Assembly: GCF_001949145.1 (NCBI RefSeq) | Contig: NW_019091356.1 | Span: forward strand, 1,240,789-1,304,788 | DNA: 64,000 nucleotides | Origin: Acanthaster planci | Taxonomy: Eukaryota | Direction: 5' to 3' | Part shown: positions 126-46,900 of the stretch, piece by piece | Position numbering within the stretch: the stretch's first letter is position 1 | How the letters are laid out: each line of letters begins with the position of its first letter | Notes under the pieces: model-generated | Seen by the model: only the letters and a program-made list of their open reading frames with translations | The model's database searches: none | Told to the model about the DNA's origin: nothing | Translations under genes and position numbers: made by a program

Positions 126-2097
126 AACGCACGCGACAGATTCCAGAGTACCGCCTACATCAGGGGAAGGTTGGGAACCTTATGCGTGGACTCAGCGGCT
201 CGATTTGAATTTCTCTCCATGCCATCCAAGAGTGCAGTGATGAGCTGATTTCTTTCAGCTAAATTGGCGATAAATCGTTTCGGGTGACTTGGCCCACAAC
301 ATGTCCACCCCGCTTGCACACCAAGGCTGAACTACAATTTATGAGCGTGACTTGAAAATAAACCGCGCCCCCAAAGGAAACTGACTTCATGCATTGCACA
401 TCAACGTCTGTGACATTTCAGTGGCAGCCATGTTGCAATATCATATGGCTGTATTCGGACTGGCCGCAATGCTTTGTATTTTTGTCTTAGAACTTTGAAA
501 AAGAAGCTGTTGACCACAAGTAAACACCACAGGATAGGCCACCGGTGTAAGGAAACTCAGCACTCATAGTACACAAGTAGAATGGAAAAGGCGCCGGCGC
601 CGTATTTAAAGAATTGGAGAATACTGTCACGTGATAAGTAGCCATTTCTAGTTTTGGACGACAGAAAAAAATTTTGCTCCAAGTAAAAACAGAACACGGT
701 CAGAAATGTGTGTGGAACTGAACTATTAATCATTCAAGATTTGTTTTCATTGCTAAGTCTGTTATGGTTAATAATGTATTATGTTATGTTATAATGTATT
801 TGATATATACCTTTAGAGCAATTTTCCAACAATACTTTAATTAAAAAAATATCATGGAAACGAAACCGAAATCATTTGTCTGGATGTGCTGTATTCGATT
901 GTCTCTGGATGTGTGAGAGTGATTTATCGATGGAGATCATTGCTGCAGACAAAAGTATCAATAATTTTCTTGCAAAAGACAAAAGAATATGATATTGTAT
1001 GTGTCCAGTTAACACATTTCTCGGTTAGCGCCTTCACTGACAGGAAATATTCCCAATGGAGAAAGGGGTGTACTCATGCTACACGTCTTTCCGCGGCCAA
1101 TCAAATCTGGCTATTTCTGCCCAGTGTAGGACAGCAAGACTTTTTTTTTAAATTTCACTTGTTCAAACACCACTTGGCATGATTTCCGCAGAACCTTTTG
1201 TGACAAATCTCAGTACTCTTGATTAAGCAATGATGTAAATCTATCACGAACTTAATATATGGCATTCTGTATCTACTTGCCCTTTTTCTTATTCAGAAGA
1301 AGAGATGATCTCAAGGGCCCATTTTCAGACCATCAGTGACGTCAATAAAACGAACTAAACTGCACGTAGCTAACCCCGTGATGCGAGACTTGCAAACGGC
1401 AATGATCTAGGTTCAAGTGATGTGGTGACTTCTTGGTTTCTTTTGGCTCTCATTGGAAGGATTTTGACCGGTGAATTTCGTCATCACTTCCACTTGCGCA
1501 GAAGGAATGCAAACAGGATCATTCTGAGTTTGGATCAAGGTTGAGTCAAAGCTTCTCCCGAGGTCTCAATTTCTGGGTCACCTTATTTTGTCAAATGAAA
1601 TGAAAAGTCACTAGCATCCTAGAAAAGGGCACTTAACACTGAAAAAATTGGCAAGTAGAATGGATCTGATAAAATCGCAACTATCAGTTTGTTTCTTTCA
1701 TTGTTCAGATCTTCTGGGCAAAGTTTTTGTCTAAAATACTAGAAACAAAGGAAAGGAGCCTCCGTTGCTCTGGGGAAATCGTGGTCTCTTGGTCCAGCGC
1801 ATGGCTCATAGGAAAGGGAACGACGTGATTACAAAGTTCTCCAAGGTTGCTTCAGTATAAGGTGGGTTTTGCTTATGGCAACATTGGGTCACCAGATGGG
1901 ATTCCATGTGCTGTATATCACTCGTGAGAGTTCACTGCCAATTTAAAGCAGGGAAACTTGTCAAGCAAAAATGTTGACGAAGAAGCTGAGCCCTGATTTT
2001 ACAGCAGGCCCAGGACCAATTTACAGACTGAGACAATCCGTGGACAATAGTACATCAATAAAACAACCGTTTGCAAGTTTAATATCTCAAAATTCTC

Positions 2098-2103
2098 TTT
2101 ATT
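2098..2103 (-). terminator. Candidate polyadenylation signal (AATAAA) of the lectin-ALP gene
   Basis: tttatt on + strand about 790 nt past the stop; such hexamers are common in AT-rich DNA. Confidence 0.3.
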
Positions 2104-2888
2104 TCAGTCATTTAACTTTCCACGATTTCTTGAAGGAAATTTACTCACGGTTGAGTTTGGTTTAGCTTTCCACGAAAAGCCCTGGAAACTACCCTGAGAG
2201 CCTTTGTGTAAACAATTGCAAGCAGGGGAAACCAGAAATTAATCATTACTGTTTCATATAGAGTTAAAATTATCTGTCGTTCTTTCAAAATTGTATTTAT
2301 GTTGTGTTACCATGATCCTTGTACAAAATCATTCCAAGACTCGTGCGGTACGTAAAGAAATTTGGTAGGATTAGAACGATTTCACAGTAAATTGAAAGCT
2401 TCATCAAAACATTAAGAGCACTTCAGAATGAAGATTTCAAAATAAAATTTATGAAGCGATCTTCAAATCAGAAATTTTCAAAGTAAATGAAGAGAGACGG
2501 TCAAAATTTTCATACTATCGGCTAGATTTACAAGATAGTGCGCAAGTGCAAAGAACAACCAATCATGAATTTTCTTATATCACCTCTTCTCTTCGCATAA
2601 ATGATTCAAAACGAAAAAAACTCTTCAGTGCTGTAAACAACTAATTATTTGAATTCGTTCCTCTTGACATCTTTGGGAAGAATGTAAAACAGAGAACACT
2701 CTACATTTTTCGGACTGTTAAAATGAATTTACCACCCCATGGCAAGCAGATGATGCTTGTGCAAACTGCCCATGTTGATTCCAAATACCCGCGGATATTT
2801 CGTAAAGATGTACTCTGGTTGCAGTTTAAGCAACGACCAATCAATCGTTATTGCTCAAGAGAAGACTGTTGTTGAGAATACGGCCATT

Positions 2889-3076
2889 TTAGTGGCAATT
2901 GGGTGCGAAGTCCCCGATGCAGGCGGCATACTGCATGGCGTGCATGATGTAGTTCTGTTCGTGCACGGAGTGGAAGAGATGCGACATGGGGCCGTGGGCA
3001 AAGATGGCCACGTCATCCCCAGCGTGCGCTCCAGGTACTGCAGCTATCAAGGCGCTCTGCATGTAATGGGGAGCCT
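2889..3076 (-). CDS. Exon 12: ALP C-terminus (…[51 protein letters not shown])
   Basis: H-x-G-x-DVAIFA-x-GP-x-x-HLF..VHEQNYI.H.M.YAACIG motif; TAA at 2891-2889. Confidence 0.95.
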
Positions 3077-6000
3077 CTGAAATGAATTACACACAGTCGA
3101 CAAGGAAAAATGAACTCACCACAATTCGGTCGAGTGGAATTCCATCAGTTTTGCCAGATTGTTTGCTTATTTTTCTGGTAAGTGTTATGTTAATTGAAAT
3201 ATTATGTGCTACTCATACCGATGACTAGTTTGGTGGGTTTTTAGTAAAGAAACAAAAATTAAAATCCCAGAGAATATGACGAAAAATTCAAGAATTTTAA
3301 ACTGGACATTCACGCTTGTTACCGCCATGTCTTTTGACCATCCACCCCGATATTACGTACACAGAGACTTTGTCTTTTCCAATATCACTTATATGCCAGC
3401 TTCACTCCTTTAGAAATGTTTTCGTGTTACAAAGCATCTGATCTGAAACGCTTCAGAAAGACAGAATTAGTTAAAATAGCCAGAACAACTAGATACCATT
3501 TCATTCGGTATTACTAATGGCAAAACACGATTTAATGGGATTCTCTGAAGAAAAAAAATGAACGAAGTCAGAACACCTGAGAGAAAACGATCAACAGAGT
3601 CGCAACGCTGTACCTTTTCAATGGCCAGCTCACGCTTCTTGCCGCCAAGGCCATTTGTGCGCATGCGTGCATAATTATGAATTTATTAGTGAAAAGGTCT
3701 ATGCCTATGCGCGCATAATACCTTTGTAAGTGAAAAGGTCAATGAGTCTGCAATTAAATGTGATTGAGATTTGACCAATCAGATGACAGAGAGGGAAGGA
3801 TCTCTGAAGATATGAGGTCGATTAACACCTGTGTACTTCCTAAAAGATAACGGGACGATTTCAGCTTACGTGTGTCGGTCTTGCTCGGGTCGGGGCGATG
3901 ACTGTTTTCTTTAAACGATTTCTGGACTTCAAAACCTCCAGGCCCGATACCGTAGTTCAGGGTCGTGTAGGGCAGCCCATCGCTGAAGATAATATCAGAC
4001 TTTTGCTGGTTGTAACCTGAAATTATACATAGGTTAAAAAACCAGTTGAAGGTAGGTTCGTTTGATGTCTTCAATGGGGGATCTTTTTTTCTACACATAA
4101 TTACAGCCCAACACACAGGAAGCGTTAGGACAGAGCGATCAACGGCGCGGTGATGGAAATCGACAGATATCACCAAATATGGTCATAACTGTGGCGGTCC
4201 AATAGCAGAAAATGGTGTGAAACGCAGGGCGTGGTTTCTACGCCCAGCGGGCGGTCGGTCTTACCAAGGATGGGATTGCCTCTGACCGGGTATCCAGTGA
4301 TGGTCAAGGTGTGGCTGTGGTCAGACGTGACGACGGTCAAGGTGTCGGTGCCTTTTGTCAGTTCCAAGGACTTCTCCACGGCCTTTTCCATACCCAGGGA
4401 TTCGGTCAGAGCAAGGTGGGCGACATTGACGTGGTGGGCGTGATCGATTCTACCCCCTTCAATGAAGCAAAAATTAGTTAAATAACAATATTATCATAAA
4501 AGTAAACATTATAAAGGGGTCAGTGATATGCAGTGTCGCTGTTAATTCTGTGGTGTTACATAAAGACCTTGTTAAATCTTTACTGGACCATGTTGTTCAA
4601 GCAGGTTAAATGCAGATTTGTTTCTGGTGCAACACATGTAACATAAAGTAAAATCATCCTCAAACTAAATGAGCTCTTTCCCGTGGCTTATTTAGAAGGA
4701 TTAAGGCGTATCAGTACGGAGGTCAGAAGGTAAATGGAAGTATAAATGGAAAAACCACTCCAGTTTTGACCAGTGCGATTTAGTTATGGTAAATCGGTAA
4801 GTCCATACACACACCTTCCACAAAGAGGAAATACCGCCTGCCACCCCTGGACAGCAAGCGGATGGCCTGCTCGGTCATCTCGGCCACGGTCGGTTGACCA
4901 GCCACGTTGTCCGCTTCGTAATCAATGTGGTCCGCGTTAAACAATCCTGGATTTAAGTTTTAAAAATGAAAAAAAAGTTTATCTTGATTATTTTTAGCCA
5001 CTCAGCGGCAAATCTGTCGGGGAACAGCAAACTAGAATCTTCTCAACGAGTACCGGTAATTTTCTGAGAGTGAGGTTATTTTGATTGACAGAAATCTTTA
5101 GAAGGTTGGTCGAATGTTAAGATATTAATTTGGGCTTAAATAAGCTTTGGACAGAAACACAGGGCCAGAAGACACCTGCGCCCCCCAAATAGTGCATTGT
5201 TTTACATTCATTACCAAGGACGTAGTCCGTTCCCTGTACATCCAGATTTTGTAGTTCATCGAGTTTCGTGATGTACTTAGCGTTTCCTTTTGATTTGTAT
5301 CTTGCTTCCCACTCTTGGATCAGGTCCAACGAGTCCTCACGCTTCCCAGAGCTGCCGCCCTCGATGTAGGAGGTGGGTCGAAACTCCCTCCATCCACCTC
5401 CCAATGCCACCTGCAGGATGCAGTTCAGGCGTAGATTTGAATAAGGGTAGGCCTACATTTTTTGTATTCAATTGAATCACTTCTGCCTTTGTGCTTGCCT
5501 ACAGAATAACAACGAAATTGAAACGCTCAGATGACCCATAAAACAAGAGTGAAACTGGTACCAAAGTTTAGTCTTTTGTTCTACCACTAATCTGCAGCAA
5601 GAGGAAAACCAAATCTACTGTTTTCTTGATGCATGGTGGTAGTGTCTTTAAACTGTCTCTGAAATTGTCTTTCCATCGGCCGAGCCAGATTCTGTCCGCT
5701 GTTTTCATTGGGTAATTTCTGTCATCACACGAAGTCATATCGTTTGGGGAATCGCACCCCCCGTTGTGTGTTCTGAAACTCTTGTTTTTTTTTCTTATTT
5801 CATCATCTGCAGAGATGCAAGAACTTTACTCACGTCAATGTCCATCTCACTTCGAACGAACTGTTTAGCGATGTCATCGCAACTGGTCCCGTCAGTGTCG
5901 TGTTCCCAGTGACGGTACGGGACGTGAGCGTACAGGCCAGCCGGCGAAGCGTGCGTGATACGGGTGGTTGTCACAAAGCCAACCGCCATCCCTGAGTAAA

Positions 6001-9000
6001 GAAATTGTGACCAGCTCAAGTGTGCCAGTTGTTGTTTGTTTAATGGTTTTTGAAAATTTGTAAAGATCGTTAAAATTCTCCCAAAATTTTGAGGTGTGGA
6101 CAAACATTTCGCAGCAATTTTCATGCACTTTCGAACCAAACTTGAAATCACATTCGGTGGGGATTCGAGTTCTGCTATAACCTAGGAATTGTTTACCTGC
6201 TTCCTTGGCGACTTTGAGGATGGAGGACACCTCTCTACCAGCAGCGGTGTCGCAATTGCGGTACAAGGCGCGACCATCTAGTCCAATGACTCCCTTCTTG
6301 GTCTTGACTCCCGTGAGATAAGCCGTGGCAGTCCCGGCAGAGTCTGGCACTTGGTGATCAGTATTGTAAGTCTGACGAGGTGGAAAGACAAAAAACGATA
6401 CCAAGCTTATTAAATTCTCATTACAACGGTCAAATGAATTATTTATTCGCTCCGTGCTATGAAAAGACTTCCTTATTCTTTTTTCAAATTGTTACAAATA
6501 ATGAACTATTTAACGGCATATTCCATTAGCATGCAGGATATCCATTACCAGTTTGTCACATGAAATGGGGAGGTAATTTGGGGTTCCATTTCTAACCTTG
6601 GACAGACCGATGTGAGGGAACGCCTCGTAAGACAGCACCGTCTCTTCTCCCGGATTCCCTGCATTCTGACCTTTCAAGATGCGCGTGCTGACCACAGTGG
6701 ATATACTCATCCCGTCACCCAGGAACATTATCACGTTGTGGGCGATTTTCTTGTTCTGTTTGGCGTCGTCCAGGGCCTTATGAAGGCTTTCGTAGGCCTG
6801 TCTCCTCCAGTGCTCCGGATAGTCAGTGGCTAGTGACATTAAATTGGATTGGCGATAATGTCAATGTCGGCTGCAATACTTGGAATTTTAAGAAGGGAAA
6901 TTTTGTCAAGGTAAAGCAGTCAGTGTTGTTGGTGCAAACTTGCCACGTGGACGTCAGTTAATATAGCATCAGTGACGCGCCTTTGATAAATGTTTGCTGC
7001 CACCAAGAGTCTGGAAGAGGCTTCATTTGGCATGCGCCTCATACATCCACTTCCGCTGATATTTTCGTGTCTTGAAAAGACCCCGTAATGGATATGGTGG
7101 ATTTGCACGACTGACAGACCCCACGTTTCCCTATGTAACTGTTCGTTTGCTTAAAAATACCTGAGAATTTTCTATTCACAGAAATGGTGTATGCAGTTGC
7201 ATGAACTTTGGACGGCAATGTCTTTGGGTGAGCCTATGAGGGCGCTCTGCAAAGCAGCAAGTAACACGTGGAGGTGTCATGAAAGGTTGCTATAATCTTT
7301 CCAGTCGTGCAGTCAACTTTGCAATGCCCAGTGTGTGTATTAAGATTATGCGCGTGCGCGTTGTGGAAATGTCACCGTAAAATGCGCAGACACCTCCTCA
7401 GGAGTAAATTCGTACGCTGTCGAGTTTCACAGTAGAAAGATCACTAGACAACCCAGAGAAAAAACCTAGAGACACGGGGCAGATTCGTTGTACTCGTAGG
7501 GTCTGGACTAGAAAATGAACCAGGCCCGCGATGGTGACTGTGGGCTTCATACACGCATTAGACACCCACGCCAGCCTATCATGCTTTGATCTCGATAAAA
7601 AAAAATGATTCTCACCTATGAGAGCTGGTTTCTTGCAAACGTAGTAGAATTCTTTGTCGCATTCCACATTGTTCCAAGTTTCTGCATATTTGTCGCCACC
7701 GGTAATTGCGCAGAGGTTGTTATCTAAATCGTTTGGTTGACCAGGATTCCAACTTTCAAAGTTCCTCTGTCATTTTGACGTAAAGGAAAGTATATCCTCG
7801 GTGACTGAATATAATCAACTAAGAAGATCTCGAAGTCAACCTTTTTTAATTGTGCAAGTTATAAAGCATGAAACACCAATGGTGTAAGTTTGAATGGGGA
7901 GGGGAATTTTGGGAGCCCTCATTTTCGGGGGGGGGGGCGCTCAGTGGGTTCGTTCACGGTGTACAATCACTAGATTGTGTCCCCCTCTTTTTTTGAGTGA
8001 GGCACGGAGGAGACAAGGCTACATACCTCGAGCTGTCCCTCCTAGTTACGCTATTGTCACGGTGATACAAAGCAAAAGCTTTAGAATACTTACACTGGGA
8101 TTTTACCCCAAAAATCACCAAAATATGTACATGTATTTCCAAATAGAAACTAAAGAAATGGAATTGGAAAGAGGGGAAATAAGACTGGAATGAAACCTCC
8201 ATAATCTTCAAAAAGTACAGGCCACTTTGAAAGAAACTCGAAGTGTGTGTGAAAAGTCGATGTATACCTTGCCGATGAGTTCACCTCAGTTAAGGTGTAA
8301 GGTTAATTAGCCTATTATGAGGTAAATGATGAACACAATAGGAGGGTGCTCTTTGGTTTGGGAAAGTTCTTTTGCGTTTATTCCGATTTCACCCACTTTG
8401 GAGGTATCCTCCAATAATTCTTGTCTCCGCCATGTTTCAAGAGGGCTAATCGGCTCTTTTATTTCTCAGGTTATATGCACGTGGGGAAATTAGTCGCAGA
8501 CTCACATAATTATGAGTTTGACTAGCGTCTGCATCGTTCTAAGGGGCAATATCTTCTTGGCCGATCAAACGTGCCGTTCCTTACCTCGGAGAAATCACTC
8601 CACCTGAACTGGCCTTGGAACGAATCCCAGATGTACCCGATCCAGAATTTAGTAGCGCCGAAGTTCTCTGTCAAAATAGTCAACGGGTAAATGAAGGCTT
8701 TGTGAAACTTTGGATTTCTGTCGATATAAAAGCACGACCCAGTGGGCAGAACGTCCAAGAGGCGATTTTTGCTTTTATTAGTAGTATTTTTTGTTACGTA
8801 CAACACGCTGGGGAAACTTGACTTGAATAAAGGCTGCAATCATTGCTCTCGAGATTTTTTTTCAAGAGAAGTAAATTCCGACATTTCATCGGAGGAAGCT
8901 TCCACGAAGCGTGAAGACTATCCCCTCTTAAAAACATAACAACTGCTCATTATAAAAAAAATTCTCGTAGACATTTAGTTATACGATTTATAGCATCTGG

Positions 9001-9753
9001 ATCGTATATAAATACGACGCTCCTGTTGTCTTACTTTAAAAATGATCACAGAAAAAATAGGCCTATGACTCCCCCAAGAGTTCAAAATACGCACGTTTCA
9101 GGAACAACTGTTCTTTATAGCTGCCAATGCTGACAACTGCCGCCCCTTCCTTCGCGCAGTTTTCGTGGGACTCCAGCCACTCCACATCCGTCTTGTAAAG
9201 TTTGTAGCAGTAGTCACCGAATGATATCCAGTCACTGTCACAGCCTGAGGGAAATCAATCAATACTCATGATGATTATTGTGCTACTGGGAGTGTACCCG
9301 AAGGACTAGTTTCGATTCGTTTTCGAGAAAGGAAAACCCCGTGCAAGGACGAGAATAATGCATTCAGCTATTTTTATCTCTCTCTTTTGATCTCAGTTTT
9401 AAATTCTTCCAATTTAACATTTGAGTCGTTTTCGTTTTTAAATTGTCCTTTGTTTCATGTTGAAAAGAAGAGAGCACCGTAAGGTGTTGTTATGTGGTGC
9501 TCTGGTGTTGAAAACAATAAACATTTTATAGTGTTTTGTGGTAAGACTGTAGCCTTGTTCGATATGTTGACGATTTGGGGCCAACCAAATACGCTCTTCA
9601 GAGATATTCGCTTGAACAGATTTGATATAAGAGTCATTTCTAGATTTCTGCCACAAAAAGTTTGGAGAAAAATGTTGGAATGTACTCACCTGCCACACAG
9701 TAGTGAGTGGACGCCGCTAGCAGCAGGACAGTCAGAAGCCTCAGACGCCCCAT
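2889..9753 (-). CDS. Gene model: secreted C-type lectin domain-alkaline phosphatase fusion protein, 12 exons, 1869 nt CDS, 622 aa
   Basis: All 11 introns are GT-AG and all phases join without stops: 9753-9690, 9244-9095, 8667-8585, 7766-7616, 6829-6597, 6371-6197, 5991-5834, 5410-5215, 4946-4815, 4456-4265, 4016-3870, 3076-2889. ALP motifs GDGM, DSA (nucleophile Ser), THAS, R in [22 protein letters not shown] and HAGDDV are all present. The 7616-to-6829 junction is the least certain. Confidence 0.8.
3870..4016 (-). CDS. Exon 11: ALP crown-domain region ([16 protein letters not shown]...RPDPSKTDT)
   Basis: D-G-x-PYTTL-x-YG-x-GPG motif; donor C|gtaagc. Confidence 0.92.
4265..4456 (-). CDS. Exon 10: ALP zinc ligands (GGRIDHAHH...[27 protein letters not shown])
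   Basis: RIDHAHH and DHSH metal-binding motifs; 192 nt, phase 1 to 1. Confidence 0.95.
4815..4946 (-). CDS. Exon 9: ALP ([11 protein letters not shown]...[15 protein letters not shown]...YFLFVE)
   Basis: GLF...H..YE, P.V.EMT..AI..L and FLFVE motifs; phase 1 to 1. Confidence 0.93.
5215..5410 (-). CDS. Exon 8: ALP ([10 protein letters not shown]...[13 protein letters not shown]...DYVLG)
   Basis: V-x-LGGG and G-x-R-x-D-x2-DLI-x-EW motifs; GT-AG, phase 0 to 1. Confidence 0.93.
5834..5991 (-). CDS. Exon 7: ALP ([32 protein letters not shown]...)
   Basis: [12 protein letters not shown] motif and phosphate-binding Arg; donor GAC|gtgagt. Confidence 0.95.
6197..6371 (-). CDS. Exon 6: ALP active-site serine ([24 protein letters not shown]...)
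   Basis: [10 protein letters not shown] signature; 175 nt, phase 0 to 1; GT-AG. Confidence 0.95.
6597..6829 (-). CDS. Exon 5: ALP N-terminal helix and first metal-ligand strand ([20 protein letters not shown]...[11 protein letters not shown]...GLSK)
   Basis: cactag is the first AG downstream of an in-frame TGA, phase 1; contains GDGM; donor AAG|gttaga. Confidence 0.9.
7616..7766 (-). CDS. Exon 4: CTLD C-terminal part ([50 protein letters not shown]), open-ended
   Basis: W-x-P-G-QPN...C...WNN..C......VCK pattern; no stop codon; ends at donor G|gtgaga, phase 0 to 1. Confidence 0.9.
8585..8667 (-). CDS. Exon 3: CTLD middle ([28 protein letters not shown])
   Basis: Acceptor attttgacag; WIG motif and F-x-W-S-D; donor GAG|gtaagg, phase 1 to 0. 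Confidence 0.9.
9095..9244 (-). CDS. Exon 2: N-terminal third of C-type lectin domain ([50 protein letters not shown])
   Basis: Acceptor ttccctcag; classic long-form CTLD pattern C-x3-W...CY...W..S...C...G..V.SI.S..EQ.FL; donor C|gtgcgt, phase 1 to 1. Confidence 0.9.
9690..9753 (-). CDS. Exon 1: start codon and signal peptide ([22 protein letters not shown])
   Basis: ATG in strong context agcaccATGG; basic N-region then hydrophobic core; donor G|gtgagt, phase 1. Confidence 0.85.
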
Positions 9754-9864
9754 GGTGCTTGAAGAAATCTCGCCTCGGATGGTTAGCAGGGAGAGAGAGA
9801 GGCAAGGATTATGTGTGCTTTCACGAGACCAACAGCTATGCCACACCACCAACCGAACCCACGG

Positions 9865-9883
9865 CCTTTTTATTGGCTATTGG
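9865..9883 (-). promoter_or_regulatory. Candidate proximal promoter of the lectin-ALP gene (two CCAAT boxes, A-rich TATA-like run)
   Basis: Minus strand reads ccaatagccaataaaaagg about 115-130 nt upstream of the ATG. Confidence 0.3.
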
Positions 9884-12235
9884 TTCTTTTGAAAAACAAT
9901 AGATCCAGCTCACCTTTGTTGGTTTAGGAGTGGAGAAAACAAAGTGAGTGCTTGATAAGCCTCTTTAAAGAATGCAATGGAGACATAACATCTGGTGATG
10001 ATCCTTTGAATCGTAGCATTTTTTTTTCTTTTCCTAAAGGTTATTTCACAATATCATATCTTTCAGCGGCTTTTTGAATGATCACTACTCGTTAAGTAAA
10101 GTAAATAAATAACCATTTAATAACACCTCACTACAAATTCTTTATCGTGATTGACAAAGAGCCAGTCACATGATATTCTCTATTTTAGCCCGGTGCGACT
10201 ATAACCGCAGCAAGCAAAGTAGGCCCACGCGTGGCCATCGGGGTTGCTTGCAAATTGTGCTGGCGCGGCGCGCCGTCGCGTGCGAAGAACTTGCGCAACA
10301 GAGCTCGGTTCATATATTTTGTGAAGATGTAGTTTAGTAAAGGGCTGCTGCATTTTTAACAAATTTCCTCGCCAAATTGACGTATTTGTATATGTAGTTA
10401 GACCAGATTAATCAATTATAGCTAAAATCAAGCAAAATACGTGGGGACAATTTTATAAAACAAACATCGACTGCTTTATCTTCTGGTATAATAAAACTAG
10501 CTTCCCTCGGGGATCCATGGAGCATTCCATTTTTCATGTGGCGAAATAGTCAATATTTGTATAATATCATGACTTTTTAATATTATCAGATTATAAGCAG
10601 ATGTTCAGTGATAGGTTTGTGATTATCAAACATTTACATTTCAAGATATCTTCTTTTCTCTTCACTATTTGACGCCGTTATGAAAGTGTTTGCCCTTAAC
10701 TGTTTTTTTCACTTTTCAAGAAAGCTGTTGCGTCAGCCATTGAAGTAAGTGGTTGCAAATTGTGTTTTTTAATCTTTGTACGAACGTCGACACAAAATGT
10801 TTCTTTCAGTGGATCGTAATTTTTATCGCTTCGGTTTTACGCACCTGGCAAGAAAAGATAGCTCTCATAAATTTTCTAATTTGCTTAAATTTCAAACTAT
10901 TAAACTGATGTGTTGATAAAACTTTGTGATCCGCAGAACCAACGAGCCCTGCCCGTCGAAGTTGTAACACCATAAACATATGAGGGGTGCTGCGTTGCTG
11001 TTTTGGGCGCTGCCGTGTGATGCTGAAAGCATTAGATGGTTATGGAATGGAATAAATAATGAATATTATAGGCAAAGTGTGGTTGTATACCCTGTCAAGA
11101 GCATAATAACCCCCCCAAAAAAGAGAAAGTATATGTAAATACATAGTTATTTTTAGTGATACAACAGCTATGGGTTATGATCACCCATTGGTATGGGATT
11201 TGTTTCAGTGGAAGGGTTCATAGTAAATTTGCGAGGAAATGGGATAAGTTGGGCGCATCGTGAACGGTGCACCATACAATTTCAGACATCTCTCTCAAAT
11301 AAAGTTTTTTATTCGGTCTGAAGGGCTATATGGTTACATGAGGAGCACACAATTCTGTCCGAGCTCTTTTCACTTTCTGATTTGGTTTCAGATGAAACAT
11401 TGCAACGGTGAACCATGAAAAAAAAAGAAAAAGATGTGAGTGACTCTCCCTTTTTCAGTTGAGGTGGTGTATGTTTGTCTCACTTGTGGTATGTGGGACA
11501 CAGACATACGAGTCTACTTGTAGTCCATGTTCCACCGGAGGGAGAGAGATCCTTGTTAAATTGTCAAGTATGGTGCACGGTAGGCCTAAACTTAGAAGTA
11601 GAACACACACCGTGTGAGGACTCAAGACAGTTACGCCATCCTATCCTGGAGGAAATAGGGGATCATGGAAACCAAGGACGAATCGGGACAGACGCGGGTG
11701 GTTACGATCTGTTCAGACCATATTTGAAGAATTTCAAACTCTGCAATTCTATACTTTTCAATACAATTCACGTCAAAACGCTAAAATGTCTCTAATTTTC
11801 ACAACAGATTTGAAAACTGTTGACTTAATTGCCTGCCAAAACAATGCATCCTGTGTGTACGTGACACATAGAATATCACATTGACATAAATAATCCACGG
11901 GATCTGTGTCTTTTTTTCATATTATGCAGTGCATCTTTGGGGAGTCAGTCTCGTACAAAAACCAGGCATCGGTAGAGGGTTTTACCTGACAATTAACGAT
12001 ACCTCAGTGTTTGTTACACAAAAGACACTGTTGTGCTGAAGAAACTCTCGGGAATTAATCCCCCCCCCAAAAAAACAAAGAATGAATGAAAAGAAAAACA
12101 TGCCTGTGATATCAGATGCTAGCTTAGGAACGAAACATGTTTAGAGATTCCAACCTTGCTGAATGATGAGAGAGCCCGAGGTTATCGAGAATAATTGTCA
12201 AAAAGTGTAACATTGTGCATGTATTTGCAAAGTGT

Positions 12236-12298
12236 CTAGCGCCCTCTAGCTCTGTAATTTTGTAAGCGTAATCAAAATGGCGACCAGCAGAGGGCTTC
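12236..12298. promoter_or_regulatory. Divergently oriented pair of CTCF-like motifs with a YY1-like AAAATGGCG between them
   Basis: Minus strand gagctagagggcgctag (12252-12236); plus strand CCAGCAGAGGGC (12284-12295) matches CCASYAGRKGGC. Confidence 0.4.
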
Positions 12299-12968
12299 AC
12301 GCACGCACGGATTTGCAAGTTCCAAACGGTATTTATTAGTTCTATTTTACATACAGGTTGTACGAATTACGATTCTCCCACAAATAGATTTAAGCACATT
12401 AATCAAATTAGACACACATGTACATCACAGCGTGAGTTCAGTATTAGGACGCGATGACGTTGATTGAATTCAATTCATCGTCCATTCTCGAACATGTTGA
12501 TAGCAGGCTAGGCCTGAAATGAAATCGAAGTGAAGGGCCAGCGGAGAGATTTTACTTTAATACCTCCAATTTTTTGCCTTTTTTGCTGCACCATAGCTCA
12601 AACAGACATTTGGACATACAAAAGATTGCCATTTAAACTGAGCTAGGTCTAAATATGGATTTGCATAATTTAAAAGGCGTTGGGACCTGTGGGTGATGGA
12701 CGCAAATCTACTTCTTTTCTCAGAAATAAGCATAATAAAAGTATACCTATCCATGATATCAGTTTGTGTTTTTTTTTGGAAAAGCGTAACCAGTGATATG
12801 AGGTATATAGGCATTTATTTTAGTGGCCGGGTATTTATCAATTTTGATGCCAATACTGACAGGGAACCCATACAATATTGTGTTATAATTACCAAATTTG
12901 CCCTCTGAAATAGATTCAGTACATGGTCTGGTGGTAATAGTAGCTAAACATGTTAAGTACAATGCTAA

Positions 12969-13008
12969 CTTTGAGCATGGAGGTAGAATTCTACCTCCAT
13001 GCTTTGAG
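12969..13008. mobile_element. 26-bp perfect palindrome flanked by a 7-bp target-site duplication (P-element-like footprint or micro-MITE)
   Basis: ctttgag [catggaggtagaattctacctccatg, 12976-13001] ctttgag. Confidence 0.7.
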
Positions 13009-13163
13009 ACCCGGGCTCCATGCCTTTGCTCGACTGTCCTGGGCATTTTGTAATTTTTCCCACTTGTGCCCCCCCCCAAAAAGTGCACGATTATCCTTTT
13101 ATTTATAATTGATTTCTATAATACATTACAGGATATTTCTATTTATTTTCTTGATTATAGCTC

Positions 13164-13358
13164 TTGAGAGAAGGTCCCAAATTGCACTAATTCTAAATTC
13201 CATTTCGTAAATATGATGTCAGCATCACCACCATCTGGTTGCTGGTGATGCTGACATCATATTTTCTTTTTTTTTCCTCAATATTTTGTTTTGAGAGAAG
13301 GTCCCAAATTGCACTAATTCTAAATTCCATCTCGTAAATATAATGTCAGCGTCACCAT
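13164..13358. repeat. About 67-bp direct repeat (period 127) interleaved with a perfect 22-bp inverted repeat
   Basis: ttgagagaaggtcccaaattgcactaattctaaattccat... at 13164 and 13291; aaatatgatgtcagcatcacca (13209-13230) pairs with 13243-13264 around a 12-nt loop. Confidence 0.85.
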
Positions 13359-14259
13359 CAACCAGATGCAGATTTGCAGTGTTAAAATTTCTGAGGATCC
13401 AAAACACTTACAGAAGGTGTTCATGTGCAACAGCAAAATCATATCGGGATCATGGACCAGTCAAATATCAAGGATTCTGAGTACAGAGTTAAAACTTGTT
13501 TAGTAAATTTTGTTTAAATTTCATTTCTTGCAGAGCCAATCGTCTACAATGAACTCGCAATTCGTACCAACATGTCCATATTGTCGTACTGGTAAGGGTC
13601 TCGCCTGCTCTGCTGTTTAACTTGGATGTCCCACTTTGGTTTAATATGTACCAATTAAGTGTATTCCAAAAATCATTGCTTCAAAAGTGAGAAGTTGAGT
13701 ACAATTGGAACATTTCATAGGTGTGCCCACAGTCCACGTACTTGTAAAGATGGTCCTTTTTTTCCAATTTCATTGCCTGGCTGGGAGAGAATACATGTAA
13801 GTCTGCCTGACGGAAATGGTTCTGTGATGAATCCACACTTCCTTCTGAAATGGTTCTCTTTCTTGCCCTGTCATTTGCCTGTCCTGCTTGTACCACTCTC
13901 ATTTGTCTATTTAAAACAGGAATTAAACATACTCAACAAAATCCAAGGGAATATTGAATTACAAGAGATGTTCATGAAAGTATTGACCGTGTTTCATTCA
14001 TCCTGCTGAGCTTCCCAGTTGTTACTATTTATCAATGGCTTCATATGATTTACCAAGGTTCACAATATGCCATACTGAATAAAACTGGTAAGCTTCCTTT
14101 TAAAAACTACACATTTAAGGGTGTACATGATGACATAATAATGGCCCATTCGTGTTGAGTTCCTTGCGGTTTCTATTCATGATAAGGAACTTTTACTTGT
14201 ATTAGATAGCCCAAAGCCAGTCTCCCAAAAGTTCATGGTCTCATAAGTGCGCTCACTGC

Positions 14260-14412
14260 TCCTTAAATATCCACCCTTTTCCTTCTGTTCTTTGGTACGA
14301 CAGTCGCACCTTTGTGTCGGCCCTCTCGGGCTCATCGGCAGGGATTCTGGGATTGACGGGACTGGAAGGGTTCATTTTCTACTTCATTGTCTCGTTTGTC
14401 TTCTCCGTAAGT
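14260..14412 (+). other. Possible non-coding leader exon of Gli
   Basis: TATA-like cttaaata near 14262, GC-richer stretch, consensus donor gtaagt at 14407. No coding support; assignment to Gli is inference. Confidence 0.25.
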
Positions 14413-17400
14413 ATTTTTCACCTTTATTTGTCCCATGTGTGATTCTTATGCTGTAACACTCCGGAATGGGGTTATTAACACACTATATATTCTATAGATA
14501 AACCATACCACATGCCCTGGATTCTGACTTTTGACTGTGATCGGGAGTTACGAATCCTAACCACTTGACTACCCCCCCTCCCTTCCACTAACAACCATAA
14601 AATCTTTACCTTACCTTTTTCCGCGATGGCTCTGGTAGCTTATGCTTTGCGTGAAGGCCGGGCGTAAATGGCAGGAATTCTTCCGTCACAGACAACCCTT
14701 GGTTACCAGCGGGCTGTTAGGAGGACTATTTGTATCCTTTCAAACGATATAAATCTCGTGCGTAGAAATGCCTCCCTATCTTCAATTGGTTGCTTTGACT
14801 CTTTGGGTGATTATAATGAGGATTCTGGTTTGCATCTGTTTGGCAAATACCGCTGAAATATTATCTTGAACCACTCCTTTCCAGCATAAAAAGGACCATT
14901 TAAATAATGTCAGTAACATGAAATTTATATATTTTGTAGCCCAACATTACAGATCAGTATAAATAATTGATATATTCAGTATTTCCCGGAAATGTTTTAT
15001 TGTAACCATTAAAAAATCCAAGGGGAGGGGTTGACACCTACTGCAGACCTGCTTACCAGCGTTGCGTTGAACCAATGCCAAATAGAACAGGGTGAAGTAA
15101 CTAAAATTTAGTTGCATAGATTTTGTTTTTAGACAGGTGTCACGGCAGCTGGAGATTAAATTGGGCTGCCCCTGGATTTTGGGTTTCAAAAGGGCAAATT
15201 GTCAAATTACTCCCTATCTACATAAATTGGCATTGAGTTCAGCTGATGAGACCAAGGCAATATGGGGTTGTTCTGAAAAACTGCACAATTGGATCTTTCC
15301 AAGTCTTACATGGGTAGTCACTCGTAATCCAAATTTCAGGAAAAATCTAGTTTGACATGACTTCGGTGTGCCAGTCTGAACTTGGTTTTAGTCGTGTTCT
15401 TCCATGTTGTGTAAAATGTGTGATTCATTCTTGCCTTTTTACTTTCCTTAACCTTCTTGCTTCAGACTTATGTACTGTTTTGGACGTATCCTTTTTTACT
15501 CAAATATGTTCGAGTCTGAGGAAGATGTGGGAGAGAATTGTGGGTGGGGCGTAGTGATCAATGGGAGGGGGGAACAACTTCAGAGAATAGTAAGTTATCC
15601 TGTTTAATTTACTTGCTTGGATTTGATATAATAGATCTGATCGTCTCAGTTTTGCTTATTGCCTCGTTCCAACTTATGCAGGCTTGTGCACTTGTTCCCC
15701 ATTTCAAAGTCTGTGACTGTTTCCATAACTAGTTATTTTTTTGGCAGATTTCTCTACGGGATGGTCCATGTGTACTGACACCAAATCGATGAGACCATTT
15801 CAAGCATACTTCACCGGAATTAATCACAGCACAGGTATCACAGGTGGTTTCCAACATCGAGGGGAGAATTCAGTACTAGTGTTACTCTACAGATGTATGA
15901 GCGGCCTGACCCAAGACGCTTAAATTCACCTGAGTTCTCTTTTGAGTCACAAACTCTTATACCAAATGTGGCACAGTGGAAATAGGTCAGAGGTTTAATG
16001 CGCCCATCCAGATACATTTTACTGCAATACTTTGCATAATGTCAAATGGAAATTTTTTTTTTTCAAAACGAGGGAAATTTGAAGGCTTTCTCCCACAAGT
16101 GAAACTGAAGAACTCAGGAAATCTTGTCTGCGGGAAAAGTGTCTGCTCATTTATTGCTTCAGAGAACTGGGCGTAAAGTTGGTGGCTTTATTCCATGATT
16201 TTTTTGAAATCTGCAGTACCCTTGTGAAACAAAGACACGCCTCGTATCCAGATGGACTGGTGCTGATTTGTAATTTTAGGGAGGGATAAGTTATTGTTGT
16301 GATGTACCCATGAGGATGTCGAGAACAAGACATCCTGTCTGCATTGCATTATGAAAAGCACCAAAGACCATCTTGTGAGCACATGTAGGTAGCTCCAAAA
16401 TGTGTCAGAGCTGCAGATTTGTATCAATCACAAACAAAAGAGCTTTTTCTGCCGTGTGAGGCACAAACCTGTATCATTTTATGTTTTACTGAAAACTATT
16501 TTTTATGACTGATAGACGGCAAGATCCTTTCTTTAAGGGTTCTCTTACCATTTGTTTCATAAATGTAGATGCATGTGAGTTGTCATCCACAGAAGTTAAT
16601 CGGAAAAGTCTATAAAAATACCCATTTGTCTATCTCACAATAAGCTCTATGCATAATTTTGTAAAGAGACTGGAAAAAGGACGGTTGTTACTTGTTCTCA
16701 TTTGTCAAAATCATGATGGTATTGATTTGAATGTTTTGTGAGAAATATCCCTACAAAGAAGGAAATGAGAATGATTACTCTTTCGGTACAGTTTTCAATG
16801 ACGAACATAAAAAGCATAGAAATTGTTTTTAGACCAATTTGGCTTTAGTCGGTATATGGTATCTTTTACATGTGTTAATTATGTAAATGATGGACATTAA
16901 AAAAGGACGGTGCAATTTTCCAGGTAAAACAATGTGTCATGTGTGTATTGTACGTCCAGATTGTTCATGAAACATTTGATGCTGAACAGCTTAATGTGTG
17001 TCAAGGACTGAAAAGATGCACATGTCTCTCATAATGTTTATGAATATGTAAAAAATTGGTAGTTTACAATGTACACTGGAAACAAGCTAGGTTGACATTG
17101 CTGTAGCAATCCTACAGTAATTGAATATCTTTTATTAAGTAAAAGCCTGTCAAATTTATTTTTAAAATAGTCACTTTTAAAAGCACTTCATCTGAAGCGC
17201 AATTATTTCCAAATTTTTATCATTGGAGCTTTCTTTTCTTCACTGAGCTAGGAGTGACAAACTTCAAGGCTGTTGATTAAGTAATTCAGAAAATGTCATC
17301 TTCAGTAACTGAACTAGTTTCAGTCGTTAGTCATCGGCTGCACCTTTAAACTTGCCCGCATTCCAAATACCCAAACATTTTAGAAATTTTGAAATTATTT

Positions 17401-40900: not shown

Positions 40901-43900
40901 TAATCCACCTCTGTCCTTCCGTTTGACAAGTTTCCAAAATAAGATATGATTCCAGCAATACAGTTGCCTTACGCTGATAACCTTCCGCTGGTTGAGTGAT
41001 AAGTGTGCCGACTGCGTCCTGGTTGTGAGATTTGGTTTTGTATCATTCAGGTTCAGAAGCCGGAGTCAAGTTGAACTTTGATTCCAGATTGATTGTTTTA
41101 AATTTTTTTTTACGCCCTCCTCAGAAAGGCACTGCAAGTGACTTTGTTACACGCCACAAGCATGTGGCTGGGTACACAAACTAAGCCCATTACAAGCGTA
41201 CCAGATTCAGTTGATTTTTTTATGTTAACTTCCAAACTTGTACATGTAGATCCCTTAGTCTTGATGAAATGTGTAAATGAAATCTAGTGTAGACGAAAGA
41301 TGAACTCAAAGTGAGAGGTACATGTACCTTAGTTGTACTTAACAGAGAATGCTTAATTTGTGGCCGATTCGTCTTTTCTTTACAAAAAACGGTGTTTTTC
41401 AGGAAAAAAATTCATGGTTGGGGCCTGTGTCTTGTGATAAAATCATAACAGCAGTTAACAAAACTGTTATTCGGTATTGTTCAAGAATGATATATGGTTC
41501 ACATCCTGGGATTGTAATATCAGCTGTGCAAAGCACACAGATAAACTATAATCGTTGACTTTTTTCTTTCTCCAGTATCTTCGGCATTATTTCAATGGTT
41601 GCAGCCAAATTTGGACAGAATCTAACTTGGCCAGAGTCTCATGTGTAGTGACTAGCATGTTTGGCCAGTGGTCACTTGTAGTCATTTTCTTCAAAATGAC
41701 AAAACGCTGCTTCTTCCACAACCTCAGTCCAGTTATTGTCAAACTTGGTCAGTGGTATGTCTGGCAAAACCTCGTAAAAGATGTTCACAGAATTTGGCCA
41801 GTGGTCACTAGTGGTCATTTTATTCAACATTACAAATTCCTTCTTCTTCCACAAGCTTGGCCCATTAATTGTCAAACTTGGTCGATGATATCTCTGGACC
41901 TAATGTCATAAAATGTCTTTGTAGAATTTGGCCATTGGTCACCTGGTGGTCAGTACGAGTATGGTATATGTACTATTGATAGACCGATTCGCTGACACTT
42001 TTACTGCAGTGTCCCCACCACTCACATGTACAGCGACAGAAAAATTGAATCTGATCTGCACCTTCAAAATTTCCAAAAGCTGTTCACGACTGATATATCC
42101 TTCCTTCCTGAAGCACACTAGCTCTAGTTATCGACTGTAAACTTGCATGTTGCAGGGCAGTGATGTCATTTGTTGAGAACAGACACCCTGAGTTATGACT
42201 TCCAAGAAAACGTCAATGTCATTCCAGCCCCATGTTGTAAACTTTCGCATTTTCAGACAAAGATCAAGTGAAGCAGGACAGCCAGCAAGGCAGCAGCGAT
42301 ACCCCCGGCCGCGGCACTCTGAGCACGGTCTGCGAGGAGCCTGCCTCCAGTACCGATGAGGACCACCACCAGCGGGACAGCCAGCGAGCCAAATACCTGG
42401 CCAGCCTGCGCCCTTTTCCCCTGGCCCCCTCAGTCCATCCCCACCACTATCACCACCAGGCCTTGCACCACCATCACCACCACCACCACTCACCACCCTA
42501 CCTCATTGACCCCACCAATGGATGGGCAGCCTTGGACCCCCGTTATGGTAAGGCTATAAACAATGTCAGTGAATGTTTTTTAACTATGTTTGCAGTTGCC
42601 TTGTTGCAGTTTTGGTTGAGTTGTCCGTTAATGATTAATATAAAGCAGAGTTGATGAAAAGTAGTTTGATTTGGAGCCACATGCAGACTGGTCCTAGACT
42701 TGCGCTTGTGCAGCTCTTGTACCATTTATACGATGCTACGGAAACCAAGAACCACAAAGACAGATGCCACCCTTGAATTGCTCTTTTACTTTTTGGCACC
42801 AAGAAAGTTTTTTTTTTTTCAATCTGAACGCCATGGCAAACTCTGCAAGTCAGACAGCTGATGAATGAAAATAATTCAGATCTGACATCACACCGCCAAC
42901 CCAGTACCTGCCTCCCCAAACTATAAATAAAGCTCTTAGGAAAATTGCAGGTTCATACTCTAATTTTAAAGTCCAGTTTCACATTTTTTTTCTTTGTCGT
43001 ACGGGTATCGTACCAGTTTATTCCACCCACAGCCCTTCAAACATTGTACTTCAGGTAGACTTTGAGCTCTCCTTTTTTTAACAATTCCAATAAGTCAAAG
43101 GACTGGATAGGAATTAGTACAGATTTTGTACTTTGATTCTCAAAGTTTGACCCTGACATATCTTGGCCATCCAATGTGGTGATCATCATCTCTCACTGAG
43201 TGTACTTATACTGAATACCACTGTCGGTTCACGAGGACGCAATTGTCAAACTAACTTTTTGTGAACTGTTAACATGACCATGGAACTGTATGGAGCCTGC
43301 ATGCAAGGTATGTACTGTTACTTGTAACTAGTAGAAGATGGAGTCAAAATGACACATCTTGTGGGACTTAAGCACCTGTCAATTGTAATCCCGGCCCCAG
43401 GTGAACCGGGACGTGGGGGGGGGGCTTAGCAGGGAAGATAAAACAGGGCCAGCATGATAGTCCCCGTCATTTGCCCGACCAGGGCAGGGCGCCTTTTTTT
43501 GCATTCCCCGGCCCCAGCATGCCGGGCACCATTGTGGTAACCCCCGCGCAATCCTGGGTCCGGCGTGCGGAGCGTTGTGACCAATCCCCGCACCGTCCCT
43601 AGCATGCAGGGCTTGTGACGCAACAACCGCATGACTGAAAATAAATAATAGTCCCCTACTCTTCTGGGTCACTACTAAGACAACAATCGACTTGGCCTGC
43701 CGTAACTACAGGTACTGGTAAAATATCTCCGAAATAAAGCAAAGCAAGGGGCAGCTGCTTTAATTTTACCAAACTTTGGCGAAACATTCGTCCGCATATC
43801 TGAAGCACCGGAATCAGGGGGGCCGACAACCATAATCGCTATACTGGGTACTCTTCCCTTGCGGAGGTCTCAGAAATAATTATGGAAATTCATCCAGTAG

Positions 43901-46900
43901 CAAAATTTGTTACATGCGGTGTGGAGACTAATTGACCAGTTGAAATGGTCGTTTATGTACATGAGGCCATCACCCGTGCCAGCCCAATAAAAGTAGGGAC
44001 AGTTATCAGTGAGATATATTTTAGCGTATTCTTCCTCAGTCCTCAACACTTCATTCGTTTATTGAAGATTGATCAAGATAACCAATGATTTGAAATATAT
44101 CGCCAAAATACACGTGACCAGAGCTACTTGGTTGAAGGATAAATTACCACAATTGTTTACGCCATGTTTTAATCATTTGGCAGTCCAAAGAAAGTAGCGG
44201 CAGTGTTTGTAAAAAAAGAAAGGTCTATATTTTGCGGGCTCTGATCCCAAAATAAGACATCATCTTTGTCTGGTTTTCCTCTGTCAAGGTAGGGGAAACA
44301 CTTTGTATTTTATATCAAAGCTCAGTGCTATAAAATTTTACCGATAGACGGTGTAACAAATTGTACAACCCCGGCCAAGTCCCTGCTATCATCCCGAAGC
44401 CAGCCATTGTGCAACCCGGGCCAAGCCCCGGTATCGTCCCGGGCCAGCGGGGCAGCAATTGTACAACCCTGGCCAAGTCCCTGCTATCATCCCGAAGCCA
44501 GCCATTGTGCAACCCAGGCCAAGCCCCGCTATCGTTCCGGCCCAGCGGGGCAGCAATTGTACAACCCCGGCCAAGTCCCTGCTATCGTCCCGGCCAGTGG
44601 GGCACCTTTTTTGGGGGCATCCCGGGGTACGTCCCCGCTACATTTTCGAAAGTCCCGGGTCCCCTGGGGCGGGGATGACAATCGACAGGTGTATTAAAGA
44701 ATGTTGGCTTGAAGTAGAAGCTCATACAGGTGTACGTGTATTGATTTTTGCAGGGCTGGAGAATCGTGTGTGCCAAAAGTGGTGTACTTAACCACTTCAC
44801 TGCTTGAACAACCAACAATCAAGCATATTCATTTACTAGGACTTTGGAATCAGTTATTTATCAGGTGATCAATAAGCCAACCAGAGAGCTGTCATTGACA
44901 GACTCTCAGTATCTCTGATAATCATAGATTTGATCTTACCCAACTGTGAAAAACTTCAACTTAGAAGTTGTGTTTGCATTGCTTACTGATTTCAGCAAAG
45001 TATTTTAAATGATTGTTTTCAATAATTTTTCTTCTTACAAAAATGAAGAGCCGGGCAAGCAGCTCTAACAAAACCATAAAATTCTAGCTATAAATCACCG
45101 TAGCTGATCCCATTGAAAAACAAAGACCACATTCCAGGAAGTATTCCTAAGTTTAAGGTTGTGGGCTTGTGACCTTAACCATCCAACTGCCAAAATGGGC
45201 AAGTGACGAAGGACATCTTCCAAATGGCACCGATTCTCAAATCTCATCAAAGACTGCTATGACTAATACTATGGTTCGCACAAAGGCAAGCTTGTGGACA
45301 TATACTTCTGAGATCTTCGATATTGTTTTATAAACAGATAATGCCAGAAAATCCATGCCAGTCAGGGTGATTATTTTTTTTAAAAAGGTCTTTTGGTGGA
45401 AGCCATATAATGTTGACTTGCATATTTAAAATTTTAAATCTCCCTATGTAAATATTCTGCAGTTCAAAAAAAAAACTAATGCACTCTTTAAAATTAATGC
45501 AGTTTATTTGGAGGAATTTGAAAATTGAAAAAAGTGTTCTTGGTCCTTGAAACGTTCATCAGTAAGCCAAAATATTTGTCAGAATTGTGCCAACATTTCC
45601 GGCATAAAGCGGTTAATATTTTTCATGGTAGGCCAGTAGTTTTCAATGTTTTGTTTTTACGAACGTCATCATGGAGACTTAAGTGTTAATCCTGATTAAT
45701 TTTTCCATCTGTTCCTTCCCAGTGCATGCCATGGATGGGCGTCTAGGTTTCCACCCTCCCATCCCTGTGGATTCGAGAACCCACGAAGGACGATATCACT
45801 TTGACAGTCCTATTCACCACCCCTTACATGGGTTAGTTCACTCAGTACAACTCCTAAAGCAACTTGCATCCTAATAATCCACGATTTATAGCTGTATTTG
45901 CATAATGCTGTCTTTAGGAGTCGTACATGTATCTGATGAATATTCATGGCGTTTGGGCGAAGGTCATTTTCCCATCAGTAGAAAAAATGCTTTTGATTTG
46001 ATTTTTCTGAGTCCAGTGTATACTGCCAGAAAATTTCTACAGGCTTGCTCGTGCAGCATTTGAACCCACAAATTTTTTTTGCTTGAAGTGACATCAGACA
46101 TTTCATATGACTCTTGGCCAAAAGCAAACTTCAGACCTTCATTGATTAAATTTACACCCGATGATCTTAGCCTTCGTGGTGTGTATCATGCGCTGTGCTA
46201 ACTGCCCAGGTTAGGTCAGAATATGTGTTTGTAAGAAGTACTTGAAAGTTTGCCAAGCCACACTATTGGTTATGATCCATCATCTCTCCCCGCTTCTCAG
46301 GCATACTTCCGGAGGCAGTCCCTCTCTGTCCGATGTCTCGTTGATACGTCTCACCCCCCAGCGGGGATCATCAGCTGACTCGGCTAGCTACCCGCTGTAC
46401 ATGCAGCACTATGTGGACCAGTTTAGGGGGAGTCCGGCCATGTCAGCCCTGTCCCATGCCCGGGGAATCAGCCCCAGCGGCTCCTATGGTGAGTCAAAGT
46501 CAAAAACGTCACACTGAGACGAAGCCTGTGCTCATCCTCACTTTGTTTAAGACTTCAGTCAGACTGGAAACAGACCTTTCGCTATGAATCTCTTCTTTGA
46601 TGTGTTGAACGGGTATTTATTAGCTTTTCTGTCCAATTATTTTTTTCAGTCATGATATTGGTTCTATTTAAATTTTCCCAACACAGCTGTGCACCTACAG
46701 TACTCGGTTTACTACCTTTTTATCGTGTGAAAATAATGCACGGGAAACAATAAGTAATTTTGGCAACTTCAACTTCAGTCTTTTATGGACTGAACTGTTC
46801 TCAATATTCAAGGCTGTTTGTCCAGATCGCCTTTCGAAATGTTGTGACTTTCCCCTCTTCAGATATCTACAGTCATGAGCTGTTTGTTGCGATTGCACGG

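Follow-up and report, generated by a model that had tools for sequence, protein, structure and literature searches.

A fusion of a C-type lectin-like domain with alkaline phosphatase in the starfish Acanthaster planci

The gene and its transcripts

A 64,000-nucleotide stretch of the Acanthaster planci genome (the window; contig NW_019091356.1, positions 1,240,789 to 1,304,788) carries on its minus strand a gene that joins a C-type lectin-like domain (CTLD) to an alkaline phosphatase (ALP). Its 12 coding exons run from 9753 to 2889 of the window (Table 1) and give a frame of 1869 nt, encoding 622 aa with no internal stop; all 11 introns have GT..AG ends. The frame encodes, in order, a predicted signal peptide, a CTLD with six cysteines, and the ALP. 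A first-pass annotation of the DNA had proposed this single 622-aa frame, with a phase-1 donor at 7616 meeting a phase-1 acceptor at 6829 across a 786-nt intron (intron 4), and both the exon structure and the phases were borne out.

The leader has a basic N-terminus followed by a hydrophobic stretch (aa 4-22), judged from a hydrophobicity window of 19 aa. When the exons were searched singly, the Pfam family Lectin_C (PF00059) matched exons 2 and 4, each below the cut-off alone, and Alk_phosphatase matched seven of the eight ALP exons, exon 11 giving no match by itself. The 622-aa model contains no low-complexity repeat and no N-glycosylation sequon.

Eight of the 24 sequencing runs listed were examined: four RNA-like contig runs (X1, X2, X3, and X5), three raw-read RNA runs (X11, X14, and X15, with about a fifth of each run's reads used), and one DNA-like run (X9). 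The RNA nature of X1–X3 is a guess made by the search tool; we take them as RNA because DNA would retain introns. The first-pass annotation had pointed to the 7616/6829 joint as the feature to seek in RNA data, and it is found there. In X1 and in X2, one contig has all 11 introns spliced out, this joint included, while one contig of X3 carries the joint and nine others, that is, all 10 introns within the stretch compared. The joint, which has GT-AG ends and skips 786 nt, is thus present in single spliced contigs of three of the four RNA-like contig runs, and the contig depth in X1–X3 is flat across the exons and zero inside intron 4. In a second study, two X14 reads with two different starts cross the joint, with 72 letters on the shorter side, making X14 one of three raw-read runs to contain it. 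The joint was not seen in X5, which holds short unspliced pieces only, in X11, whose cover is limited to the 3′ exons, or in X15, which has no exon cover.

The DNA-like run X9 spans 5019-10300 unspliced in one contig and lacks the joint. This supports the assembly and disfavors a retrocopy; the window itself may derive from this run. The fused CTLD-ALP transcript is almost certainly real, and, where the 5′ part of the gene is covered, it predominates among the assembled forms.

The ALP part is represented in public databases. At 100% identity, exon 5 matches A. planci XP_022085217.1 (UniProt A0A8B7XY76, 476 aa), annotated as "alkaline phosphatase, tissue-nonspecific isozyme-like". This protein is identical to aa 150-622 of our model and differs at its start, since it lacks exons 1–4, which encode the signal peptide and the CTLD. 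The first-pass annotation was right that an in-frame stop (6863-6861) lies upstream of exon 5. It had overlooked an in-frame ATG (6839-6837), ten bases into intron 4, between that stop and the exon 5 acceptor. Because the RefSeq model starts at this intronic ATG, the public record has the ALP part alone; in light of the spliced contigs, XP_022085217.1 is a truncated gene model.

The same data bear on the possibility that the CTLD and the 476-aa RefSeq ALP belong to separate neighboring genes, linked only through rare read-through splicing or contig assembly. RefSeq does begin the ALP alone from the intron 4 ATG, rare variants would be lost in assembled contigs, and a trace of X14 depth falls within intron 4. 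However, exon 4 contains no stop, and the ALP alone would have no signal peptide despite carrying the disulfide cysteines of secreted ALPs. Moreover, exon depth is flat, contig depth in intron 4 is zero, and raw reads span the joint. We consider the two-gene explanation highly improbable.

Table 1. Features of the CTLD-ALP gene, in window coordinates.
Feature	Positions	Strand	Evidence
Exon 1, coding part, with the start codon, the predicted signal peptide (aa 1-21), and a phase-1 donor	9690..9753	-	frame; joined to exon 2 in X1-X3
Exon 2: first CTLD part, Cys23, Cys34, Cys51	9095..9244	-	frame, Pfam, structure matches, joints
Exon 3: mid CTLD, WIG motif, Trp94	8585..8667	-	frame, domain alignment, joints
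Exon 4: CTLD end, QPN 109-111, Cys118, WNN 130-132, Cys135, Cys143; stop-free; phase-1 donor	7616..7766	-	frame, Pfam, alignment
Intron 4: CTLD/ALP junction, 786 nt, phase 1 on both sides; contains RefSeq start ATG 6839-6837	6830..7615	-	removed in X1, X2, X3 contigs and 2 X14 reads
Exon 5: ALP domain start, Asp188	6597..6829	-	frame, Pfam, 100% protein match
Exon 6: catalytic Ser238, Cys267	6197..6371	-	frame, Pfam, alignment
Exon 7: His299, Ser301, Arg312, Cys323	5834..5991	-	frame, Pfam, alignment
Exon 8: ALP	5215..5410	-	frame, Pfam
Exon 9: ALP; Asn407 and Gln421 at peripheral Ca site positions; Glu447	4815..4946	-	frame, Pfam, alignment
Exon 10: Asp452, His456, Asp493, His494	4265..4456	-	frame, Pfam, alignment
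Exon 11: ALP, crown region per TNAP alignment	3870..4016	-	frame, TNAP alignment
Exon 12, coding part: His578, Cys613, Cys621, stop, no GPI tail	2889..3076	-	frame, Pfam, alignment
3′ untranslated region, probable extent; contigs extend to 2300 or beyond; hexamers resembling poly(A) signals at 2103 and 2083	2083..2888	-	transcript contigs and hexamers

Within the introns, several runs show high-depth stretches with loose ends (3540-3702, 4139-4190, ~8300-8330, and 8800-8835). These are single-copy within the window and are interspersed genomic repeats. Elsewhere in the window, a zinc-finger gene lies on the plus strand (~42200-56400), about 32 kb from the ALP gene and in head-to-head orientation with it. 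It has a zf-C2H2 Pfam match at 51923-52483, and we take it to be of the Gli type from motifs in its reading frames. Overlapping open frames with repeated motifs at 44293-44788 probably mark a tandem repeat in the region of this gene.

The two domains

The first-pass annotation's description of a complete six-Cys CTLD holds: C23, C34, C51, C118, C135, and C143 fall in columns that are 85-100% Cys across 205 related domains from 70 proteins. The domain also retains W27, W44, W80-I81-G82, W94, W105, P110, and W130. Together, these residues suggest a folded and maintained CTLD. The positions of calcium site 2 tell a different story from the canonical one, as all five are amides (Q109, N111, N116, N131, and N132) and none is acidic. 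In a survey in which 195 of the 205 related domains could be parsed (10 could not), three acidic residues were found at these positions in 134 domains and none in 6; the QPN motif occurs in 13. Because no acidic residue is left at the five positions, classic calcium-dependent sugar binding is unlikely, and the domain is a genuine CTLD fold that does not look like a canonical lectin. The earlier idea of a "recognise-and-dephosphorylate" enzyme is still plausible in general; a calcium-dependent lectin role within it is unlikely, given QPN, the replacement of Glu by Asn, and WNN. The domain is acidic (isoelectric point 4.5; 20 D/E and 12 K/R) and is at most about 35% identical to any protein among the matches listed. 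It is followed closely by the enzyme, the linker from Cys143 to the first conserved ALP Trp being 12 residues long.

The ALP part is a genuine member of its family: it matches the PF00245 profile over its full length (1-423 of 423, E 2.8e-127) and human tissue-nonspecific ALP (TNAP) with E 1.5e-120. In a 14-row alignment, D188, S238, H299, S301, R312, E447, D452, H456, D493, H494, and H578 all stand in conserved family columns. S238 and R312, the catalytic serine and the phosphate-binding arginine, are the same residue in 13 of the 14 rows. The ligands of Zn1, Zn2, and Mg are also kept (D188, S301, E447, D452, H456, D493, H494, and H578). The catalytic and metal-ligand motifs are therefore intact, as the first-pass annotation had stated. 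C267, C323, C613, and C621 align with family cysteines and would form two intrachain disulfides. By homology, the enzyme would be a homodimer with phosphomonoesterase activity, and it is very likely secreted and active.

Some features set this ALP apart. The protein ends one residue past its last Cys, so there is no signal for a glycosylphosphatidylinositol (GPI) anchor; a tail of 10 residues or less is found in 12 of 100 parsed ALP homologues (113 examined). N407 and Q421 stand where the vertebrate rows of the alignment carry E and D, at the mammalian peripheral calcium site, and most members of the asteroid clade likewise lack an acidic residue in the 407 column. There are, in addition, two short deletions relative to known ALPs. 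Among the coding differences listed in other individuals, 12 were classified, and 9 of these are silent.

Relatives and origin

The nearest relatives of the ALP part among the matches listed, at 56% identity, are Asterias amurensis XP_071785567.1 and A. rubens XP_033625609.1. Unlike the Acanthaster protein, both models have a C-terminal extension and no CTLD. Neither has a full signal peptide; their 5′ exons may therefore be missing. The start of the A. amurensis model resembles the end of a signal peptide, a slight argument against a CTLD in that protein. The matches listed (best 120 of 2379 ALP hits) include no orthologue from Patiria. In a 21-row tree, the Acanthaster ALP is sister to the two Asterias proteins (SH-aLRT 93 / bootstrap 90) within an asteroid clade.

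The distribution of the fusion was searched with the ALP part or a CTLD exon as the query, not with the fused protein. No CTLD was found in the 181 ALP homologues listed (ALP search: best 120 of 2379 hits), and no ALP domain in the 121 matches listed for exon 4 with HMMER, which are mostly multi-CTLD proteins and of which 20 were scanned in Pfam. A word-indexed search with exon 4, which is weak evidence, gave no candidate, and a query of a protein-cluster atlas returned ALP clusters only. A metagenome scan with an Asterias protein as the query turned up a single contig, from an unrelated animal, that carries two ALP genes and lacks a CTLD. A keyword search of the published literature, at the level of titles and listings, did not find a CTLD-ALP protein. 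There is no ALP row in the supplements of PMC10448888 and PMC9759900 and no ALP in that of PMC11957666; the one ALP row seen in the supplement of PMC9971248 is a different paralogue. The supplement of PMC11093393, searched in part, has five ALP gene models of 467-580 aa, none of which could be matched to this gene, and the protein may be there. The transcript-supported combination of CTLD and phosphatase is thus absent from RefSeq and was not found elsewhere, and the first-pass annotation's statement that no counterpart had been described has held up within the searches run.

The gene structure points to a simple origin. The three CTLD exons form a cassette bounded by phase-1 introns at both ends, and CTLD exons have a known mobility. 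As read from sequence, the mature-enzyme exon of each ALP gene on the unrelated animal contig starts at a phase-1 acceptor in this same position and ends at the corresponding phase-0 donor. The simplest history, we infer, is that an ordinary ALP gene acquired the 1-1 CTLD cassette within the ancestral intron downstream of its signal-peptide exon.

A recent exon insertion might have left the CTLD as a passenger that supplies or preserves secretion, with no binding role, or that is clipped off after secretion. The degenerate sugar site, the long ALP branch, and the distance to the nearest CTLDs (about 35% identical, with no fused relative among the matches listed) would fit this explanation. Conversely, all fold-defining residues are kept, the linker is just 12 residues long, and three transcript assemblies show the fused form only. 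A passenger CTLD seems unlikely.

Several homologues show structures of their own. The two ALP genes of the metagenome contig (L001:6064-10005 on the plus strand and 11843-15237 on the minus strand) are intron-bearing and lie tail to tail. The Patiria miniata ALP paralogue XP_038069710.1 has Cys in place of the catalytic Ser and carries Gly and Ala in the His299 and Arg312 columns, respectively; it is likely a pseudo-phosphatase or an enzyme with altered chemistry. Branchiostoma lanceolatum P0139 (698 aa) combines ALP with a C-terminal Death domain, and B. belcheri P0002 (1309 aa) is a tandem double ALP; either may be a merged gene model.

Proposed function and comparison with known systems

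Animal ALPs are almost always single-domain enzymes positioned by a GPI anchor. We propose that a single spliced transcript of this gene would yield a predicted 622-aa ALP that is secreted, soluble, and active, and that its N-terminal CTLD would replace the missing anchor as a calcium-independent tether to a surface. This surface would most likely be the mucus of the gut or body and the microbes in it, and possibly matrix or microbial surfaces as well. A homodimer would carry two CTLDs, enabling avid binding, and the tethered enzyme would dephosphorylate monoesters in its vicinity, for example lipid A, nucleotides, or food phosphates. We give this explanation as a whole, a soluble secreted dimer tethered by its CTLD without calcium and most likely in the gut, a probability of about 0.45. 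Of its parts, a binding role for the CTLD is probable. The setting in gut or mucus is more tentative, somewhat short of an even chance, and is drawn from other animals: ALPs dephosphorylate lipid A in the vertebrate gut and the squid light organ (PMC3469785), and ALP activity marks the larval gut of sea urchins (PMC8022552).

Several observations weigh against this explanation. GPI-less ALPs without a CTLD occur in other ambulacrarians, so a tether is not required. The residue before the last Zn-His is Gly576, where 11 of the 14 rows have Glu, and the branch of the Acanthaster ALP is about twice as long as that of its Asterias sister (0.69 vs 0.36); these changes may point to an altered range of substrates or to relaxed constraint. 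None of the 12 classified coding differences lies in the CTLD exons. Runs X1–X3 all come from one study, and the second study contributes two reads only. Just within intron 4, X14 shows some 20 letters of depth (0.09, bin 6838-7054), which may reflect a minor unspliced or CTLD-less form. Finally, the ligand, the substrate, the tissue, and the protein are all predicted.

A stricter immune role can be considered, in which the CTLD directly recognizes a microbial pattern, either lipopolysaccharide (LPS) or a glycan of bacteria and perhaps with no need for calcium, and so delivers the ALP to lipid A in mucus or coelomic fluid. Microbe binding is known from some invertebrate QPN lectins, the motif is present among the related domains surveyed above, and langerin and DC-SIGNR are the best solved matches to exon 4. 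Furthermore, ALP action on lipid A has been reported from mammals to squid (PMC3469785). On the other hand, the five site-2 positions are all neutral, and an acidic CTLD is ill-suited to anionic lipid A. We regard this recognize-and-detoxify role as unlikely. A related and similarly doubtful idea is that of a natural "ligand-alkaline phosphatase", whose two modules per dimer would bind microbes or LPS without calcium while the enzyme strips lipid A phosphates, with the same 5′ exons perhaps hidden in the Asterias orthologues. If true, one protein would both find and disarm a microbial signal in a reef-destroying starfish, and if the Asterias orthologues do hide these exons, the family would be sea star-wide.

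The acidic, non-sugar-type character of the CTLD could also suit a biomineral protein, in which the domain, like the CTLDs of spicule-matrix proteins, binds calcite or matrix and the ALP, at ossicles or spines, removes phosphate compounds that inhibit crystal growth. Lithostathine is among the solved-structure matches, and CTLD proteins are present in the skeletons of sea urchins and brittle stars (PMC4336488). In the skeletal proteome of Patiria, however, no C-type lectins were detected, and no phosphatase is mentioned in the main text (PMC5460417); this weakens the mineral-matrix targeting raised in the first-pass annotation. There is also no alkaline phosphatase in three supplements of a paper on spine secretion (PMC10448888). 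We regard a skeletal function as quite improbable.

Our preferred explanation, a soluble ALP tethered by its CTLD, points to another way of localizing an enzyme, as it describes a transcript-backed ALP with an attached binding fold. Comparing the enzyme with its CTLD-less form would show directly whether targeting accelerates the dephosphorylation of LPS or other surface substrates. The analysis also corrects a public gene model of a pest, a species in which secreted proteins are under study for its control; with the 476-aa model, a proteome search would label the protein non-secreted.

Compared with animal ALPs of known structure, namely human TNAP (PDB 7yiw), intestinal ALP (4kjd), placental ALP (1zeb), and shrimp ALP (1k7h), the starfish enzyme matches over the whole domain (E 1e-120 to 1e-109). 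It has in common with them the catalytic residues, the Zn and Mg ligands, and both predicted disulfides. It differs in the extra N-terminal CTLD, the lack of a GPI tail, Asn407 and Gln421, the two short deletions, and Pro575-Gly576 in place of His-Glu in TNAP.

Among solved structures, exons 2 and 4 of the CTLD best match langerin, DC-SIGNR, and the mannose receptor family, with which the domain shares the Cys/Trp pattern. Relative to calcium-dependent C-type lectins, the domain has QPN for EPN, WNN for WND, Asn for Glu before the third core Cys (Cys118), and Trp for Asp after WIG. Echinoderm spicule-matrix proteins combine a CTLD with a Pro/Gly/Gln-rich repeat (PMC5460417), and the starfish protein has no such repeat. 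A binding module is also attached to an enzyme in the subtilase P0274 (1110 aa; two CTLDs and a WSC domain), but that enzyme is a protease. Horseshoe crab Factor C, another lectin-enzyme mosaic, is likewise a protease. Engineered fusions of a ligand with alkaline phosphatase are laboratory reagents; a natural CTLD-phosphatase is not among these mosaics. In the AP-tag fusion described in PMC11848016, the orientation is reversed relative to the starfish protein, in which the CTLD precedes the phosphatase.

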